Source of the DNA: Candidatus Altiarchaeota archaeon
GTDB lineage: Archaea; Altiarchaeota; Altiarchaeia; IMC4; SCGC-AAA252-I15
DNA: 64,000 bases
Direction of reading: 5' to 3'
Assembly: GCA_043804895.1 (NCBI GenBank)
Contig: JAZDIN010000004.1
Location: 72,887-136,886 of the forward strand
Shown here: positions 16,808 through 21,933 of the stretch, one piece after another
How the letters are laid out: every line of letters starts with the position of its first letter
Numbering within the stretch: position 1 is the first letter of the stretch
Program-made: the position numbers and the translations under genes
Notes under the pieces: generated by a model
The model's database searches: none
Seen by the model: the letters and a program-made list of their open reading frames with translations, nothing else
Told to the model about the DNA's origin: nothing

Positions 16808-17197
16808 TCATTTGACGAACTCTACGCCCACCACGCCCCTGAAGTCCTCGTCGCCGGTTAGCATCCTAATCCCTAATCCCTGGGCTAGCACATAGTTGAC
16901 GCAGTCGGTATATGATAGGCTACGTTTTTCCTTACGCATTTTACTCCTGAATACTCCGGCTTCCTTGATAACACCAATGTCATTCAACGGTAGAATCTTG
17001 AAGTTGCCAAGTATATTGCCCAGAACCTCTTCGGCGATTCCCGCATCTTCCGCGTGAAATATGCGAGAGTATACTTCCATCAGCGACAGCATTGAAGTGT
17101 AATCTTCACCAGTGAACTTCTCAAAGTACTTCCTGTAGGATTCCCTCCCCTCAAAGTAGTATGCTATGAAGGCGTAGGTGTCGAACAGGTAGGGCAT
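16808..17197 (-). CDS. vapC: PIN-domain toxin (VapC-like)
   Basis: MPYLFDTYAFIAYY... with acidic residues at PIN positions (D at the N-terminus, E40-region, DxxxY, TGDEDF). Immediately downstream of an AbrB-type antitoxin. Confidence 0.8.
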   Translation of the reverse strand: MPYLFDTYAFIAYYFEGRESYRKYFEKFTGEDYTSMLSLMEVYSRIFHAEDAGIAEEVLGNILGNFKILPLNDIGVIKEAGVFRSKMRKEKRSLSYTDCVNYVLAQGLGIRMLTGDEDFRGVVGVEFVK

Positions 17198-17198
17198 T

Positions 17199-17432
17199 CT
17201 ATTTCCATCCACTATCTATCTCAGCCACTATATCCTCAGTGCTCTTCCCTCTAAATCCGTTGGAGTTCTTGAGTACCCCGAACAGCTCCTTAGTCGACTT
17301 CACAGGTCTCAACACAATGCTGTTTTCCTGCACGGTCTCAACCAGTTTGTCCCCGGCCTTCAAGCCCAATTTATCCCTAACACCCTTCATCAACACAATC
17401 TGCCCCTTAGACGATAAAGTAACACAATCCAT
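17199..17432 (-). CDS. vapB: AbrB/SpoVT-type antitoxin (VapB-like)
   Basis: LSSKGQIVLMKGVRDKLGLKAGDKL swapped-hairpin motif. 77 aa. Confidence 0.8.
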   Translation of the reverse strand: MDCVTLSSKGQIVLMKGVRDKLGLKAGDKLVETVQENSIVLRPVKSTKELFGVLKNSNGFRGKSTEDIVAEIDSGWK

Positions 17433-17497
17433 CTTACCAAATAGTATAGAGTTTTACATTAATAAATAAGTAAGACAGCCAATGAAAAGTAAAATAT

Positions 17498-17579
17498 GGC
17501 TCCCTTCAGGGAGCTGACGCATCAACTCCTCAAAATCGCCGAGCGATTTTGGGATGCTAGTTGCCAGAGCAACTTCGCG
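17498..17579 (+). repeat. left arm of an inverted repeat of about 80 nt flanking the GNAT-toxin cassette
   Basis: GGCTCCCTTCAGGGAGCTGACGC...TCCTCAAAATCGCCGAGCGATTTTGGGATGCTAGTTGCCAGAGCAACTTCGCG. Its reverse complement recurs at 18772-18856. Confidence 0.8.
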
Positions 17580-17765
17580 CATAAAACTGCCCGGAACATA
17601 TCCAGCAAGCCCGAGTGTATTCATCTATTGCAAAAGGATGCAAATGAGCCGTAGCGTTAGCGTGGTCTGATGCAAAAGGGTGGAGAAACTCAGTAGGAGA
17701 GCCTTATCTGGCAGGGCATAAAGTATATATCCTAGCGTTACTTATTGAGTATTACAGGCGATTTT

Positions 17766-17939
17766 ATGGCACGACCAATCGATTTTTCCACAGACCTGAA
17801 CGAGGAGGACAGCATGCGGTTTGTCAACGAGTTGATTAGAGTGGATTCTTTACCAGCGAACGACAAGGAACTGGTCAAACACAGGAAGTTCCTAGAGGAA
17901 TGCGCCATTAAGGCAAGCAAGGTCAAGTGGCTTGCTTAG
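17766..17939 (+). CDS. hypothetical small protein (57 aa)
   Basis: ORF MARPIDFSTDLNEEDSMRFVNEL..., convergent with the GNAT pseudogene and overlapping its stop. No family recognised. Confidence 0.3.
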   Translation: MARPIDFSTDLNEEDSMRFVNELIRVDSLPANDKELVKHRKFLEECAIKASKVKWLA

Positions 17940-18534
17940 AACTCCCTCAACAGGTCGAGATACATCTTGATGGTTTCAGAATCTGTTTTCTTCTTGCTTA
18001 GAACCTTGAACTCGTTGTGTTCATAGAATCCGACGGCATCGGAGTATGCGTCAACAACTATAAAACGGCAGCCAATCTTCTCTGACTCTTTCAATGCCAG
18101 ACCGATTATTGTCTTGATTATCTCCGTGCCAACACCTTTTAGCATGAAGTTCTTGTCAACACCCAGACGAGCAATCAACAGGGCCGGGAAGAGTTTGTAC
18201 TTCTTCCCCCGTTGACGTAGTATCTGCAATGCCCTTTCAGTCGGCTCTATAGCGAACATACTCAGCAAAAGTACCCCAACACATTGCCCTTTTGCATGAA
18301 GAGATACGTTACCGCCGCCTTCCCTTTTAGGTGGTCTAATGCATCTTCCTGGAGGAATTCATTCAGGTCTTTATCACCGCAGTCGAATCCATTCGTCAAC
18401 GCAAGATTGCCCTCATCCAATCTGATTATCCTGGCATCAGACAAGTCCGTGACAGCAGCGCCCATACTACCTATATTGTGGCGAGAGGATAATAAGTTGC
18501 TCGACATACCATTTTGTAGATAAACTCTAGGCAC
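17936..18534 (-). pseudogene. GNAT-type acetyltransferase toxin (TacT/AtaT-like), frameshifted
   Basis: The N-terminal ORF (FDCGDKDLNEFLQEDA...VLGYFC*) and C-terminal ORF (LLSMFAIEP...FPALLIARLGVDKNFMLKGVGTEII...) are two halves of one GNAT. The frames join if one T is added to the T4 run (plus-strand A4 at 18267-18270). No DUF1778/RHH antitoxin lies upstream. Confidence 0.7.
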
Positions 18535-18670
18535 TAAAATCAGGTGAGTCTTTAAAGACGTTGGAGATTCGAACCCAATAGGTTAATGCGCAGCTGGAAG
18601 ATTTGAACCTGAACTATATAACCTATCTGGACTGGCTAAAACGGCAGTATAATAGACGTGAGAAAATAAT

Positions 18671-18739
18671 TGCTCCCTTCGGGATTTCCCACAAGACGTT
18701 CGTCTTGCTTAAATCCCGAAGGCGTACAGTGCATGCACC
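18671..18739 (+). repeat. 69-nt palindromic element built on the tRNA-Glu 3' end (copy 1)
   Basis: TGCTCCCTTCGGGATTTCCCACAAGACGTTCGTCTTGCTTAAATCCCGAAGGCGTACAGTGCATGCACC. The first 17 nt equal the reverse complement of the tRNA-Glu 3' end. Nearly identical to 20423-20491. Confidence 0.85.
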
Positions 18740-18771
18740 CTCGAAGAGGGTGCTATCCGCTTCGGTGCGAT

Positions 18772-18856
18772 GCGAAGTTGCTCTGGCAACTAGCATCCCA
18801 AAATCGCCCGGCGATTTTGAGGATCTGACGCGTCAGCTCAATGCTCCCTTCGAGCC
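18772..18856 (-). repeat. right arm of the inverted repeat flanking the GNAT-toxin cassette
   Basis: Reverse complement: GGCTCGAAGGGAGCATTGAGCTGACGCGTCAGATCCTCAAAATCGCCGGGCGATTTTGGGATGCTAGTTGCCAGAGCAACTTCGC. It also shares GGGAGCATTGAGCTGACGC with the sequence just 3' of tRNA-Glu. Confidence 0.8.
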
Positions 18857-19064
18857 ATAAACAGTTTGTTCAATTAAGGGGAAACTCCGGCAGAAAAGGG
18901 CACATTTTGGCTCAACAACCTCCCTTCCATCCCGGCCAAATAACAAGGTTGGATGAAGGGTCAGGTGTAGTATTTATAGTTGAGATATGCTATATGTTAG
19001 CAATAACCTCCCCATCTTTAGGTAGGCTTGTCCTATCTAACGATGGGCCCTCTGTGTGCTTCTG

Positions 19065-19610
19065 ATGAAACGGGCTGTTATTTTCATAGACGGTAGCAAC
19101 TTCTACCACTCCTGTTTGGACTCATTGGGCGCCGCCGACGTCAACTTCGGCAAGTTCGCCGCCAAACTATGCAGGAGCTATGAGCTTGTTGAAATCAGGT
19201 ACTATAACGCATCCATAAATCAGCAGATGGAGCCGGAGAAGTACAGGGAACAGCAGAGGTTCTTCGCCAAGGTGGCCAAGATACCGAAGGTGAAACTCAT
19301 ACTCGGGAAACTGAAGGCACGATTTGAGACGTGCACCCAATGCAGCAAGAAGACCAGGTATTTCGTGGAGAAAAATACCGACGTAAACATAGCAATTGAC
19401 CTGGTTGACTTGGCCCACAAGAATGTGTACGATATAGCGGTTATGGTCACAGGAGACGGCGATTTCAGCGGAGCAGTCAGGTTGGTCAGAACCTTCAGCA
19501 AGGAAGTCGAACACGCAAGGTTCAGGAAGAACTACTCGACAGAACTCAACAGGGCCTGCAACAGGGAAATAATACTAGACGAGGAATACATGAGAGATTG
19601 TTTACTATAA
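19065..19610 (+). CDS. NYN-domain (LabA/DUF88-like) putative RNase
   Basis: AVIFIDGSNFYHS and DVNIAIDLVDLAHKNVYDIAVMVTGDGDFSGAV motifs. Start taken at MKRAV. Confidence 0.8.
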   Translation: MKRAVIFIDGSNFYHSCLDSLGAADVNFGKFAAKLCRSYELVEIRYYNASINQQMEPEKYREQQRFFAKVAKIPKVKLILGKLKARFETCTQCSKKTRYFVEKNTDVNIAIDLVDLAHKNVYDIAVMVTGDGDFSGAVRLVRTFSKEVEHARFRKNYSTELNRACNREIILDEEYMRDCLL

Positions 19611-19684
19611 CCCACCCTTCCAGGCTAATGACTTGGGTTCCTCGAAGACCCAAGACTGCAGACAAATTCCAACCGTAAAGATAT

Positions 19685-19700
19685 TGCTCCCTTCGGGATT
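19685..19700 (+). repeat. 16-nt copy of the tRNA-Glu 3' end
   Basis: TGCTCCCTTCGGGATT matches 21407-21422 exactly. It is followed by a truncated T-arm-like CCGGGTTCGAGTC. Confidence 0.8.
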
Positions 19701-19781
19701 CCTGTACCGGGTTCGAGTCTCAAATTTTAATTACTAATTAAAGATGAGACATGCAAGTATAAAAATTCTCGGACATAATGA

Positions 19782-20027
19782 CTATCGATACACTTTGTCT
19801 CTATGTTCAAAACAGTTTATGAGTATCCTATCCTGTTCAACTCTATAAATAATCCTAAATGGTGGGACTCGTAGACTTCTGTGGTTTTTTAGTTCATGCT
19901 TCAGTGGCTTTCCCGCATCTGGTTGTTGTTCGAGCTTCTTGATTTGTTTGATTATCCTCAATCGAGTTGCATTATCCTTTATCTTCTTATACTCTTCCGC
20001 AAACTCCTGTGAGAAAATTATTTCCAT
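19782..20027 (-). CDS. relE: RelE/ParE-family toxin
   Basis: 81 aa. KPLKHELKNHRSLRVPPFRIIYRVEQDRILINCFEHRDKVY is the typical RelE C-terminal pattern. Downstream of an AbrB-type antitoxin. Confidence 0.8.
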   Translation of the reverse strand: MEIIFSQEFAEEYKKIKDNATRLRIIKQIKKLEQQPDAGKPLKHELKNHRSLRVPPFRIIYRVEQDRILINCFEHRDKVYR

Positions 20028-20030
20028 GAC

Positions 20031-20306
20031 TCATGCTATCAGAAGGTGATCTATCTCTTCATCTCCCATCTCCGTACTCGCCTTAACCACTTTACCGGAC
20101 TTTATCTGGGATTCGCTTTTAGTTATGCGCTCAATCAACTTTATTTCCTCCGATAACGCTGCATTATTTACCAACTTCAGGAGGATGTTACTCCCTTTGT
20201 TGAATACTATAAACTTTGATTGCGGCCCCAATCCGGCGTCCCTCCTAACTTCAGCAGGTATAACTATCTGACCATTCTGGCTCATCTTTGTTATAGCAAC
20301 TTCCAT
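20031..20306 (-). CDS. AbrB/MazE-type antitoxin
   Basis: MSQNGQIVIPAEVRRDAGLGPQSKF swapped-hairpin motif. Start taken at MEVAITK. Confidence 0.75.
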   Translation of the reverse strand: MEVAITKMSQNGQIVIPAEVRRDAGLGPQSKFIVFNKGSNILLKLVNNAALSEEIKLIERITKSESQIKSGKVVKASTEMGDEEIDHLLIA

Positions 20307-20422
20307 ATACAACACCTACAATACGTTTTAATATTAAAACATAGCATATTTGAGTTTAAAAATAGGGATTTACATAAAATCCCCCCTTCAGGATATATCC
20401 GAGTTTCGAACCCTCATAGGGA

Positions 20423-20491
20423 TGCTCCCTTCGGGATTTCCCGCAAGACATTCGTCTTGCTTAAATCCCGAAGGCGTACAGTGCATGCACC
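20423..20491 (+). repeat. 69-nt palindromic element built on the tRNA-Glu 3' end (copy 2)
   Basis: TGCTCCCTTCGGGATTTCCCGCAAGACATTCGTCTTGCTTAAATCCCGAAGGCGTACAGTGCATGCACC. Differs from copy 1 at two positions. Confidence 0.85.
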
Positions 20492-20607
20492 TTGACGGCA
20501 TAAAACATATGCTGATTGATACTATCCAAGAGTTAGTGAACATTATTCATTTTTATTCTTTCATTGCAGGTAATTAACTAGTCAGCATAAGATGGAGGAC
20601 TCTAAAG

Positions 20608-21078
20608 ATGGATAAACACATCACCTTCGGAATCTGGACGGCATTCGCGGTCTTCGCGATTGGAATACTAGTAGGCGCAATGATGATGGGGAACGCAATC
20701 CCAGCAGGACAATTCAGCACTCCTGACACTTCAACACAAAGATCAGTTGAGCCGGCTAACATAATACCAACCCCCCTTGAAGGGGAAGAAGATGATGGGT
20801 GTTGTATTTATAAGGATGAGACGTATTCGGGGGAGACGACCGAGGAAGAATGCGAGGATGATGAGGGCACCTGGTATGATGAAACGTGTGAAGAGATAAT
20901 ATGTGGTTTGTATGTTGGGAACCCTACGCTGGAGGAAGAGTGCATTACTGCCGAAGAATGTGAAGAAAAAAATGGCGGTGCGATAAATAAGATATGTCCA
21001 AGACTGGGTTCAGGTGACCCGCTAGGCGCCATAGACATAGAGGAGGACATAGTCTGTTGTTTACACCCGGGTGATTAG
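20608..21078 (+). CDS. membrane-anchored acidic Cys-rich protein
   Basis: N-terminal TM helix (FGIWTAFAVFAIGILVGAMMMG), then a Glu/Asp-rich region with 10 Cys (GCCIY, EECEDDEG, CEEIICG, EECITAEECEE, IVCC). No family recognised. Confidence 0.5.
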   Translation: MDKHITFGIWTAFAVFAIGILVGAMMMGNAIPAGQFSTPDTSTQRSVEPANIIPTPLEGEEDDGCCIYKDETYSGETTEEECEDDEGTWYDETCEEIICGLYVGNPTLEEECITAEECEEKNGGAINKICPRLGSGDPLGAIDIEEDIVCCLHPGD

Positions 21079-21312
21079 GTTTCGCTCAATTAGAGTGGCC
21101 ATCCTCTTGGGGAAGAAAGTGCCCGCGGAAAGAAAACACCTAGTGCATGTGTCTTCGAAGAAGTCGTTATTCATTCGTCTTATGCGTTCTGATGGGTCGA
21201 AAGACCCATCAACACCCGTAGTTTTCGCGAGCCTTTTGATAAAAGGCTCAATGCTCGCTTCGAGGAGCCCTTCCTTTGCGAAAGAAAGCGTATAGTGCAT
21301 GTACCTTCTGAT

Positions 21313-21360
21313 ATGTGGCGTAGCCACTGGCTACGACACGCGCCCGAGACAATGTCTCGG
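21313..21360 (+). repeat. multi-hairpin module copy, inside a hairpin-rich tract of about 340 nt (21060-21406)
   Basis: ATGTGG-CGTAGCCACTGGCTACG-ACACGCGC-CCGAGACAATGTCTCGG. Confidence 0.7.
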
Positions 21361-21406
21361 TCGCGAGGCACCATCCGCTCCAGTGCGAGCTGATGCGTCA
21401 GCTCAA

Positions 21407-21568
21407 TGCTCCCTTCGGGATTTGAACCCGAGTCGCCGGATTTCTCCAGGCAGGACCTAACGGTTCTGCCACCCGTTTTTCTTGGGGGGTGAAGCACCTT
21501 TCTTTTTTGAAAAGAAAGGGGCTCTCTGCGAAAGTCCGGTATGATAGGCCGGTCTACACTAAGGGAGC
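21407..21568 (-). tRNA. tRNA-Glu(UUC) with an 87-nt intron in the anticodon loop
   Basis: GCTCCCT-TA-GTGTAGACCGGCCTATCAT-A-CCGGA-CTTTCG|intron|A-TCCGG-CGAC-TCGGG-TTCAAAT-CCCGA-AGGGAGC-A. The D-arm GTGTAGNCCGGCCNATCAT is the archaeal tRNA-Glu signature. The junction could be 37/38 or 38/39. Confidence 0.85.
21442..21528 (-). other. tRNA-Glu intron (87 nt)
   Basis: CAGAGAGCCCCTTTCTTTTCAAAAAAGAAAGG...AAGAAAAACGGGTGG.... Both ends resemble the tRNA-Thr intron (GAGCCCCTTTCTTTC... and ...AAGAAAAACCGGGTC). Confidence 0.7.
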
Positions 21569-21629
21569 GTAGATTTGTTTTGTTGGTTATCCTCTCAGTA
21601 TATCTGAGATTCATATTAGATTAGTGTAA

Positions 21630-21713
21630 TCCGGTATGATAGGCCGGTATCTGGCTCGAAGAGCCGGATATGCGCGACCGCCGCAGCGTCGCATGCATCT
21701 ACACTAAGGGAGC
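21630..21713 (-). pseudogene. partial tRNA-Glu copy B: positions 1-31 with a 50-nt insert in the D-loop and no 3' half
   Basis: GCTCCCTTAGTGTAGA-[50 nt, 21648-21697, two hairpins]-CCGGCCTATCATACCGGA, then TTACACT and the hairpin AATCTCAGATATACTGAGAGGATA. The exon parts are identical to the complete gene. Confidence 0.6.
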
Positions 21714-21768
21714 GTTTGTGCGCTCTTTTTATCTATCCTCTCCGCGTGGAGATTCATTGCTCCAGTAG

Positions 21769-21850
21769 TCCGGTATGATAGGCCGGTGTCGGGCATGGGA
21801 GTGCCCGAGACGCCCGACGCGGATGCGTCGGATGCGTCTACACTAAGGGA
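21769..21850 (-). pseudogene. partial tRNA-Glu copy A: positions 3-31 with a different 50-nt D-loop insert
   Basis: (AA)TCCCTTAGTGTAGA-[50 nt, 21787-21836, two hairpins]-CCGGCCTATCATACCGGA, then CTACTGG and the hairpin AATGAATCTCCACGCGGAGAGGATA. The first two acceptor nucleotides do not match. Confidence 0.6.
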
Positions 21851-21878
21851 TTGGTTTTGTTATTAGGGGTCTTGTTTT

Positions 21879-21887: not shown

Positions 21888-21933
21888 GAATTTTGGGCAC
21901 GGAGCTTGGAGGATAGGCCTTGCTCCGTGGTTT

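Follow-up and report, generated by a model that had tools for sequence, protein, structure and literature searches.

Two palindromes beside an archaeal tRNA-Glu gene as very probable members of a lineage-restricted family of hairpin modules built from tRNA 3′ ends

Introduction

What are the two almost identical 69-nt palindromes that lie downstream of a tRNA-Glu(UUC) gene in a Candidatus Altiarchaeota genome? They occupy positions 18671-18739 and 20423-20491 of the window analysed here, a stretch of 64,000 nt from contig JAZDIN010000004.1 (positions 72,887 to 136,886 of the forward strand; assembly GCA_043804895.1), and in each a copy of the tRNA 3′ end is paired with its own inverted copy. 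An earlier reading, made from the letters alone (the sequence-only reading), had seen in them a folded single-strand recombination site made from an att core, as in attC or the ends of IS200/IS605, with a processing or termination hairpin as an equal option. We are highly confident that the palindromes are the tRNA-Glu versions of a lineage-restricted family of ~85-nt echo-hairpin modules, the echo being a direct copy of the end of the tRNA. No description of such modules was found in the literature searched, the coverage of which was incomplete. All genomes used are metagenome-assembled genomes (MAGs), and covariance-model E-values are rough.

Structure of the two copies

The copies are identical at 67 of 69 positions, in agreement with the two differences noted earlier, and the homology breaks off exactly at both borders; the flanks are unrelated, so that the element is discrete and not part of a longer segmental duplication. 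The first 17 nt on the plus strand (TGCTCCCTTCGGGATTT) are the reverse complement of the tRNA-Glu(UUC) 3′ end, from A57 of the T-loop to the discriminator A73. Read on the minus strand, both copies have the layout GGTGCATGCACTGTACG / CCTTCGGGATTT / AA / GCAAGAC-GAAY-GTCTTGY / GGG / AAATCCCGAAGG / GAGCA. The predicted fold consists of a 12-bp outer stem that is perfect (12/12), a 2×3 internal loop as the sole irregularity, a 7-bp inner stem and a tetraloop. Folding energies are −28 to −36 kcal/mol, with z-scores of −5 to −7 on either strand. The fold and inner hairpin of the sequence-only reading were reproduced in this way, as was the pairing of the tRNA-derived stretch with an inverted copy of itself (17/17 match to the tRNA-Glu end, 12/12 complementary arm); the first 12 nt of the copy-1 echo form the 3′ arm of the outer stem. 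Both differences between the copies fall in the inner hairpin, one in the loop and the other changing a G·U into a G-C pair (minus strand). The 12-mer AAATCCCGAAGG, with at most one mismatch, occurs 7 times in the window compared with 0.4 expected.

Copy 1 is a full module with an extra hairpin inserted in its tail (GCACCCTC-TTC-GAGGGTGC) and reaches to about 18775; the whole unit, termed U3 (18837 to 18671, minus strand), has ordinary tRNA-trailer hairpins before the module. In copy 2 unrelated sequence stands in place of the tail's first half, and the module is retained from GGTGC onward; it is a 5′-truncated derivative of a copy-1-like module. The degenerate versions of the tail reported before are real and lie at 21128-21156 and 21280-21308. 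That the element is not a tRNA half also holds: a split-tRNA 3′ half would carry positions 38-73 and a leader complementary to the trailer of a 5′ half, whereas the 69-mer has 57-73 alone, lacks T54-C56 and the 5′ T-stem, and has a leader that pairs within the same piece. A separate candidate role, as split-tRNA or trans-splicing partner of the tRNA-Glu 5′ fragments upstream of the gene (described below), was rejected, the 69-mer having positions 57-73 only and no bulge-helix-bulge geometry between splice-like boundaries.

The exact 69-mer was found nowhere beyond the two sites in the 1.58-Mb assembly, in 40 relatives or in viral, genome or metagenome contigs; 7 pattern matches in the genome-contig collection are unrelated bacterial hairpins. 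Rfam has no match to the element at gathering thresholds or at E-values up to 10, and a search of relatives with the U3 region (18665-18860) gave short hairpin matches only. The whole-genome search suggested earlier therefore shows that the sequence itself, with its two copies, is no genome-wide repeat; it is the architecture that recurs, in ~50 modules.

A family of modules at tRNA 3′ ends

Clusters of perfect hairpins in the window's genome (G000) coincide with tRNA loci. Units of the same architecture directly follow tRNA-Val (two loci), tRNA-Ile and two tRNA-Ser genes in this genome, each of them built from the tRNA that it follows. The tail of the Val unit ends in ...GTGTATCACATA and is followed by CTCGCCGGATT / AA / GCGAGCCT-CGTA-AGGCTTGC / GG / GAATCCGGTCGAGCCCA. 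When the Val and Ile loci were used as queries, like units came to light in other genera; relative G001 has up to four in tandem with an 87-nt period, and all modules examined fold alike.

A first covariance model (R1), run on 49 genomes of the order, gave 61 matches in 10 of them. For the second (R2), run on 61 genomes of the phylum, 37 modules from outside the window were used; it gave 62 matches, again in 10 genomes, which represent four genera of the window's family and one genus of a second family. Filters in the module census were strict and the counts are hence a lower bound. When R2 was run on the 64-kb window with filters off, the only significant matches were the two 69-mer sites (E-values 5e-4 and 1.1e-3; the next 0.71). 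A covariance-model search, as proposed in the sequence-only reading, has turned up further modules of this architecture, nearly all at tRNA 3′ ends. Among the 37 modules, 81% of the cells are paired (69% in shuffles) and 79 cells carry a double change (27.5 in shuffles); none of 500 shuffles was as high, and slid controls were far lower.

Together, the R1 census, the covariation and the recovery of both copies by R2 refute a chance palindrome or a plain duplication. Such an origin, which would suit the fact that the exact sequence occurs only twice and 1.75 kb apart, is scarcely credible, as the flanks are unrelated, the 12-mer is in clear excess and a family model independent of the window finds both copies.

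A module starts with a tail of ~33 nt; tRNA positions ~58-69 follow as an inverted copy, then an inner hairpin that is nearly perfect but variable in sequence, and last a direct echo of positions 57-73. The length of the unit is constant (83-91 nt) over ~50 sites and more than 12 different tRNA ends. Nearly all of the ~50 unique modules begin 0-4 nt after the discriminator base of a tRNA or after the preceding module. The tRNA beside the module stays intact, with its last 17 nt duplicated, and the echo always spans T-loop position 57/58 to position 73. The arms fit the local tRNA, in many cases with a single mismatch or bulge in the middle. Tail and inner hairpin, on the other hand, are related across different tRNAs: 36 of 47 modules have their closest scaffold at a tRNA with a different 3′ end, and the 21-nt inner hairpin with linkers of copy 2 (AAGCAAGACGAATGTCTTGCG) is identical (21/21) in a module of congener G002 that stands at another tRNA and has its own arms. 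The tail consensus is AT.GTATCAC.TCGAAGCG.AGTCGT.TCACGAA, with two TCAC motifs ~21 nt apart; it is conserved as sequence and not as structure, a pattern that looks like that of putative protein-binding sites. At tRNA-Ile the number of modules differs between the five congeners (one in G000, two in G001, a decayed one in G004, none of this type in G003), and in more distant families no module follows tRNA-Val.

Displaced modules also occur. Between the window copies and the nearest upstream core, the term used here for the 17-nt tRNA end and its repeats, there are 897 and 928 nt, and two other modules are displaced by 589 and 1408 nt. We interpret the distance of the window copies as the result of later cassette insertion. 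The idea that such copies always sit at cassette boundaries does not generalise, since the ~50 homologous modules almost always abut a tRNA 3′ end.

DNA-level or RNA-level element

Pairing in the modules shows no strand bias. A count by minimum free energy (MFE) folding had given an RNA-strand wobble bias (36 G·U against 3 A·C), which was rejected as an artefact because the count is confounded by alternative folds; a strand-neutral recount is unbiased. In the latter the mismatches of the outer stem comprise 16 G·T and 12 A·C, and the inner hairpins contain 230 Watson-Crick pairs, 2 G·T and no A·C. Near-perfect, strand-neutral palindromy favours a site of recombination or insertion at the DNA level over a processing hairpin. 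The tail, with its sequence but not its structure conserved, points the same way. The processing or termination hairpin that the sequence-only reading had put on an equal footing is weakened accordingly.

The RNA-level explanation makes the module a 3′ trailer element of the pre-tRNA, a co-transcribed mimic of the acceptor and T arms acting as terminator, processing or decoy signal or stable small RNA. The hairpin has a 4-5-nt 3′ overhang identical to the tRNA end, and the arms would match because a mimic must. This would fit modules that start immediately after the discriminator base, an echo that stops exactly at position 73 in all tRNAs and a structure strongly conserved with covariation. 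The inner hairpin of genus g1 (A5-stem-T5/6) resembles an oligo-T terminator, the G·U to G-C change between the window copies is on the tRNA strand, and 26 of 37 modules fold slightly better as the sense strand. However, there is no excess of G·U over A·C in the strand-neutral count and the inner hairpins are almost pure Watson-Crick. The distribution is patchy, with modules at 5 tRNAs in G000 and at none in 51 of the 61 phylum genomes, and identical tandem copies exist. The window copies are situated ~0.9 kb from the tRNA, behind genes of the opposite strand and at no gene's 3′ end; as both lie between divergently oriented genes, neither is able to terminate an adjacent gene. A 12-bp stem that leaves 4-5 nt unpaired would not reproduce the tRNA end in the geometry seen by RNase Z or the CCA enzyme, and the lack of any Rfam match is a further point. 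We therefore regard an RNA-level role as unlikely, although deserving of consideration; if it were true, the modules would represent trailer elements of a new kind that mimic tRNA.

Cassettes at tRNA cores and the search for an enzyme

On the tRNA strand the 17-nt core is found at 21407 (the gene), 20423, 19685 (16/17) and 18671, and degenerate cores lie at 21246-21264, 18838-18853 and 17496-17510. Genes located between cores include a VapBC pair in addition to those of Table 1. The GC content of this island is 39-48%, compared with ~51% for the genome; the ParE/AbrB cassette has 39%. In congener G003 the tRNA-Glu 3′ end is identical and the island is absent downstream. Low GC, cargo between cores and absence from G003 identify the region as an insertion hot spot. 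The part of the sequence-only reading that stands is that the element is built from the att-like core of such a hot spot; the features that define attC and IS200/IS605, given below, are not those of the element.

At tRNA-Arg(UCG) of G003 (C9:72730-74160; L157) the order is tRNA, module, a GNAT/antitoxin cassette, a core copy and a second module, which is the arrangement that integration of a cassette into an echo would give. The GNAT/antitoxin pair is flanked by core repeats and is homologous to window 17745-18534 (54-67% amino-acid identity). When the island proteins were compared with the fetched loci by tblastn, only this pair recurred beside a module, and the NYN and Cys-rich genes did not. 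Relative G006 (C27; L017 1922-3388) has a 488-aa tyrosine-integrase open reading frame (ORF) 1.2 kb downstream of the syntenic tRNA-Glu, on a contig that stops before any second att copy could show. Core-bounded cassettes and the G006 integrase indicate that site-specific insertion at tRNA 3′ cores operates in this lineage, and the window cassettes are best read as insertions at cores that displaced pre-existing Glu modules.

The palindromes could be inert scars, that is, attR-type junctions (P arm plus 17-nt core) of decayed tyrosine-integrase elements, the palindrome being a recombinase-binding dyad of attP. In favour, integrase att sites often show duplication from T-loop to 3′ end, the island combines cores, low GC and toxin-antitoxin genes in a mosaic, an integrase does lie beside tRNA-Glu in G006, and the true tRNA and a degenerate core are both followed by a trailer-like P′ segment (TTGAGCTGACGC...). 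Independent decay, however, would yield neither the uniform length of 83-91 nt and the homologous tail and architecture at ~50 sites nor identical tandems. The attL junction of the G006 element has no module sequence, scaffolds are common to several tRNAs while the arms differ, and the genomes richest in modules have no integrase. We consider scars of this kind improbable.

An attC site proper, in an array of the type known as clusters of attC sites lacking integron integrases (CALINs), or an end of IS200/IS605 or of a palindrome-associated transposable element (PATE), has very little probability in our view. The hairpin is of attC-like size and the neighbouring cassettes carry toxin-antitoxin pairs and an acetyltransferase, the commonest integron cargo, but neither strand of the 69-mer has an R″ (RYYYAAC) or R′ (GTTRRRY) box, and the perfect 12-bp outer stem has no extrahelical bases. 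No IntI-type recombinase was detected (0 PF00589 in the 88.7%-complete binned assembly), the genes are in mixed orientation, and one cassette is bounded by bare cores. Each unit is flanked by a 17-nt direct repeat and the arms are copies of tRNA ends, which suits neither attC nor IS200/IS605; for the latter there is no Y1 HUH transposase TnpA (0 PF01797 in G000) and a single hairpin in place of distinct left-end and right-end hairpins.

Among the 21 genomes of the family, neither PF00589 nor PF01867 is associated with the presence of modules, and both were rejected as the module enzyme. No recombinase domain was found in any ORF of 16808-21407.

A possible mechanism of insertion

We put at about even chances the interpretation that the modules are non-autonomous, DNA-level, site-specific insertion units. 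MITE-like (miniature inverted-repeat transposable element) or minimal cassettes, they would enter at the 3′ end of a tRNA gene and duplicate the 17-bp core, and every insertion would regenerate the target, which would explain the tandem arrays. The hairpin would present a ~12-bp helix of the target's own sequence, either as a structure or as a half-site for a trans-acting enzyme; the helix of the module has the same length as the acceptor/T-arm stack. For each new tRNA the arms would have to be rewritten, either as copies made from the target during insertion or through conversion among tRNA, echo and arm. In the window, regenerated cores may also have taken up cassettes of 0.7-1.2 kb (toxin-antitoxin pairs, GNAT, NYN, Cys-rich protein); these would have pushed the two Glu modules ~0.9 kb from the nearest upstream core, so that the modules look like cassette boundaries.

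In favour of insertion units are the start of modules at tRNA ends or at other modules, the tandem arrays, the differences in module presence between congeners, the scaffolds common to different tRNAs and the core-bounded cassettes of this lineage. Several points weigh against them. The rewriting of the arms is pure inference, and we know of no pathway that gives direct and inverted copies of a target separated by element sequence. The module ends (AT(A/C)GTATCAC... and ...GCGG/..AAGA) have no terminal inverted repeats. In G000 (88.7% complete) there is no match to PF00589 (tyrosine recombinase), PF00239 (serine recombinase) or PF01797 (Y1 transposase), with positive PF00589 controls. PF00589 is absent from G000, G001, G002 and G004, four of the five genomes of the genus, which thus have no XerA-type recombinase, controls and other genera being positive; across the family it is found in 10 of 21 genomes, with none in G000 or in G001, a 92%-complete genome with 17-18 modules. 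Cas1 (PF01867) is absent from 19 of the 21 family genomes, including G000, G001, G003, G007 and G016, and is carried only by G006 and G020. The modules abut tRNAs and would be co-transcribed with them, the inner hairpin of the genus-g1 relatives is terminator-like as described above, and the orthologous tRNA-Val modules of five genera could reflect vertical retention under selection.

If the modules are mobile, they would be site-specific insertions that take the sequence of their target-recognition part from the target itself; to our knowledge, no described transposon, integron or integrase system obtains its recognition part in this way. Their mobility would also imply a not yet recognised recombination activity in an archaeal phylum of which little is known. 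The modules bear as well on a long-standing question, namely the frequency with which archaeal tRNA genes are interrupted, partially duplicated and chosen as sites of integration. Modules and bare cores are partial tRNA copies that confuse tRNA annotation and MAG assembly, and the family model is a simple marker for integration hot spots and cassette arrays in these genomes.

The island downstream of tRNA-Glu

The coordinates of the features are collected in Table 1. The tRNA-Glu(UUC) gene is located downstream of EF-2, EF-1a and S10, as in relatives. It is missed by default ARAGORN and by Rfam; ARAGORN with introns allowed finds it and miscalls it as Ser. The cassette with the ParE and AbrB genes spans 19702-20422 and is bounded by bare cores, without the hairpin. 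The inverted segment at 17511-17578 is 94% complementary to 18772-18839 and, with its core, is a local inversion.

Table 1. Positions of the modules, their parts and neighbouring features in the window
Feature	Position	Strand	Evidence
Echo-hairpin module, tRNA-Glu version, copy 1 (69-mer)	18671..18739	-	R2 match 18671-18756, E=1.1e-3
Echo of copy 1, direct copy of tRNA-Glu positions 57-73 (AAATCCCGAAGGGAGCA)	18671..18687	-	17/17 identical to 21407-21423
Inner hairpin of copy 1 (7 bp and tetraloop)	18691..18708	-	Sequence comparison and fold
Outer-stem 5′ arm of copy 1 (CCTTCGGGATTT), inverted copy of the first 12 nt of the echo	18711..18722	-	12/12 complementary
Module tail of copy 1, 3′ half (GGTGCATGCACTGTACG); matches the conserved ..GTCGTcTCACGAA motif of the family	18723..18739	-	
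Echo-hairpin module, tRNA-Glu version, copy 2	20423..20491	-	R2 match 20423-20509, E=5e-4
Echo of copy 2	20423..20439	-	17/17 identical to tRNA end
Outer-stem 5′ arm of copy 2	20463..20474	-	
tRNA-Glu(UUC) gene, 87-nt intron at 37/38; source of the core	21407..21568	-	Syntenic with S10/EF-1a/EF-2 in relatives
U1, decayed module immediately downstream of the tRNA, with trailer hairpins, a degenerate tail GGTACATGCACTATACG, an 8-bp hairpin and a degenerate core CTCGAAGCGAGCA	21246..21406	-	
U2, still more decayed unit after U1	~21090-21245	-	
Cys-rich protein, 156 aa, N-terminal hydrophobic segment; cargo between tRNA and copy 2	20608..21078	+	No Pfam match
ParE-type toxin and MazE/AbrB-type antitoxin cassette, between cores 20423-20439 and 19685-19701	19782..20315	-	
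Bare core (16/17) without hairpin; distal boundary of the ParE/AbrB cassette	19685..19701	-	
NYN-domain protein gene, between the core at 19685 and copy 1	19056..19610	+	
Degenerate core and trailer start (CTCGAAGGGAGCA/TTGAGCTGACGC), opening U3	18838..18853	-	
GNAT gene (two ORFs) and convergent 64-aa ORF, directly downstream of copy 1	17745..18534	.	
Degenerate core (17496-17510), then inverted copy of the first 68 nt of U3 (17511-17578)	17496..17578	+	

The GNAT gene (17936-18534) is split into overlapping ORFs of 90 and 110 aa, and its G003 homologue is continuous; it is likely a frameshifted pseudogene. An exact-protein look-up found no protein on record identical to the window's S10 or ParE. 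In the circularised form of the ParE/AbrB cassette, 13-nt imperfect inverted repeats that are T-arm-like (GAGACTCGAACCC / GAGGGTTCGAAACTC, from 19702-19721 and 20400-20415) come to lie 7 nt either side of the 17-nt core, in an arrangement that resembles the layout of attP. Fragments like the T-arm of non-Glu tRNAs (GGTTCRAAT..) are scattered in the island (18566-18610, 19705-19721, 20403-20417); with the same loose pattern, there are 4 such non-tRNA matches in the ~5-kb island compared with ~1 per 37 kb genome-wide.

Other repeats around tRNA genes

Upstream of the tRNA-Glu gene (21570-21860, minus strand) are two extra 5′ fragments of it (positions 1 to ~32), each split by a D-loop insert of ~50 nt, and the two hairpins of these inserts differ between the copies by compensatory changes. 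The same arrangement exists in G003 (L016), and a comparable fragment lies upstream of tRNA-Gly in G016 (L130, G016:C11). With 5′ fragments and 3′ modules, both ends of tRNA genes in this lineage are accompanied by partial copies. About 25 nt before tRNA starts there is a recurrent hairpin motif, AATGAAYCTC-loop-GAGRGGATA (window 21575-21610, 21715-21745 and 21890-21925; also L016, L018, L019, L023 and L116), and in several genera the hairpin that immediately follows the S10 stop codon has the complementary CCTATCCTCC in its loop.

Most tRNA genes of G000 are followed by trailers that are homologous to each other, 150-200 nt long and composed of perfect hairpins in a stack (aGAGCCTTnnnAAGGCTCgcgaagg ... 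gataatgcattcGTG..CAC ... GAGCTGAcgygTCAGCTC), for example at C2:23411-, C24:28767-, C25:40319-, C48:4160-, C48:12261- and C33:5139-; such hairpin units are also present inside long tRNA introns of this genome. A second type of tRNA-end echo (...GAGGGTAGGGTTGATAAGGGC-hairpin-GCCCTTATGTTCAAATCC plus 3′ end) duplicates from about position 54 and lies 130-280 nt downstream of the tRNA; it was seen in several genera (G000 C25:114220-114450, at tRNA-Leu; L070, L073, L074, L082). In a distant family, L034 (G026:C1:46300-46480) has five consecutive perfect hairpins, among them CAAAATCGCTCGGCGATTTTG, which is nearly identical to window 18799-18819 and 17531-17551.

Comparison with known systems

Partial tRNA copies left by integration have been reviewed (PMC9897764, PMC3293823). 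Like archaeal tRNA att cores, the modules show a duplication from T-loop to 3′ end, an intact tRNA, arrays from a reused site and accessory or toxin-antitoxin genes between repeats. They differ in their size of ~85 nt, the lack of an integrase, the inverted core copy that forms a hairpin and the use of one scaffold at many tRNAs with matched arms. In the window, direct repeats at 21407, 20423, 19685 and 18671 flank inserts, as for integrative elements, but no integrase lies inside a bounded element.

Folded single-strand sites are known from integron attC and from the attP(+) hairpin of Xer-dependent filamentous phages (PMC2727003, PMC3442271, PMC3089051). Shared features are an imperfect palindrome of 50-70 nt, a stem that imitates the double-stranded target or partner, arrays of short cassettes, a hairpin that stays at one end of the insert beside the regenerated target, and an enzyme encoded elsewhere. 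In contrast, the modules have no R boxes or dif-like half sites, they have a 17-nt direct repeat, their stem is tRNA-derived and locus-specific, and the genomes with the most modules yielded no tyrosine recombinase. Integrons and CALINs do occur in Archaea, although the study that reports them names Altiarchaeota only as the root of the archaeal tree and not as an integron host (PMC9668308).

The Altiarchaeota are reported to be rich in MITEs (PMC11602168). Like MITEs and REPINs (repetitive extragenic palindromes in doublets forming hairpins), the modules are short, non-coding, multi-copy, hairpin-forming and non-autonomous, and their copy number varies between close relatives. Unlike these, they have no terminal inverted repeats, their target is strictly the tRNA 3′ end, the 17-nt duplication is far longer, and part of the element is target-specific. 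IS200/IS605 elements insert 3′ of a short target and make no target duplication.

Casposon integration at the 3′ end of tRNA-Pro involves recognition of the T-loop (TCAAATC) and a duplication of 14-15 bp (PMC6614799). T-loop recognition, a long duplication that overlaps the tRNA 3′ end and the possibility of tandem insertion into a regenerated site are points in common with the modules. The module duplication, however, starts in the T-loop and stops at position 73, terminal inverted repeats are lacking, and most genomes of the family have no Cas1. Plant mitochondrial t-elements and tRNA punctuation are cases of tRNA-like stem-loop processing signals in transcripts. Their stem-loop, which mimics the acceptor and T arms, is a likeness relevant only to the RNA-level explanation; the modules miss the first 3-4 acceptor pairs, have a hairpin in place of the T-loop, show no wobble strand bias and, in the window, are not at transcript ends.

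The module system does not fit the definition of tRNA att duplications, folded single-strand sites, MITEs or casposons. It might, and here we are tentative, be a self-retargeting system in which a small mobile DNA module has its recognition hairpin rewritten from each target tRNA (direct and inverted 57-73) and is moved by an enzyme that belongs to none of the tyrosine, serine, HUH-Y1 and Cas1 families, with this core-specific machinery also capturing the integrase-less cassettes at tRNA ends; this would make it a functional analogue of the integron, operating on tRNA genes.

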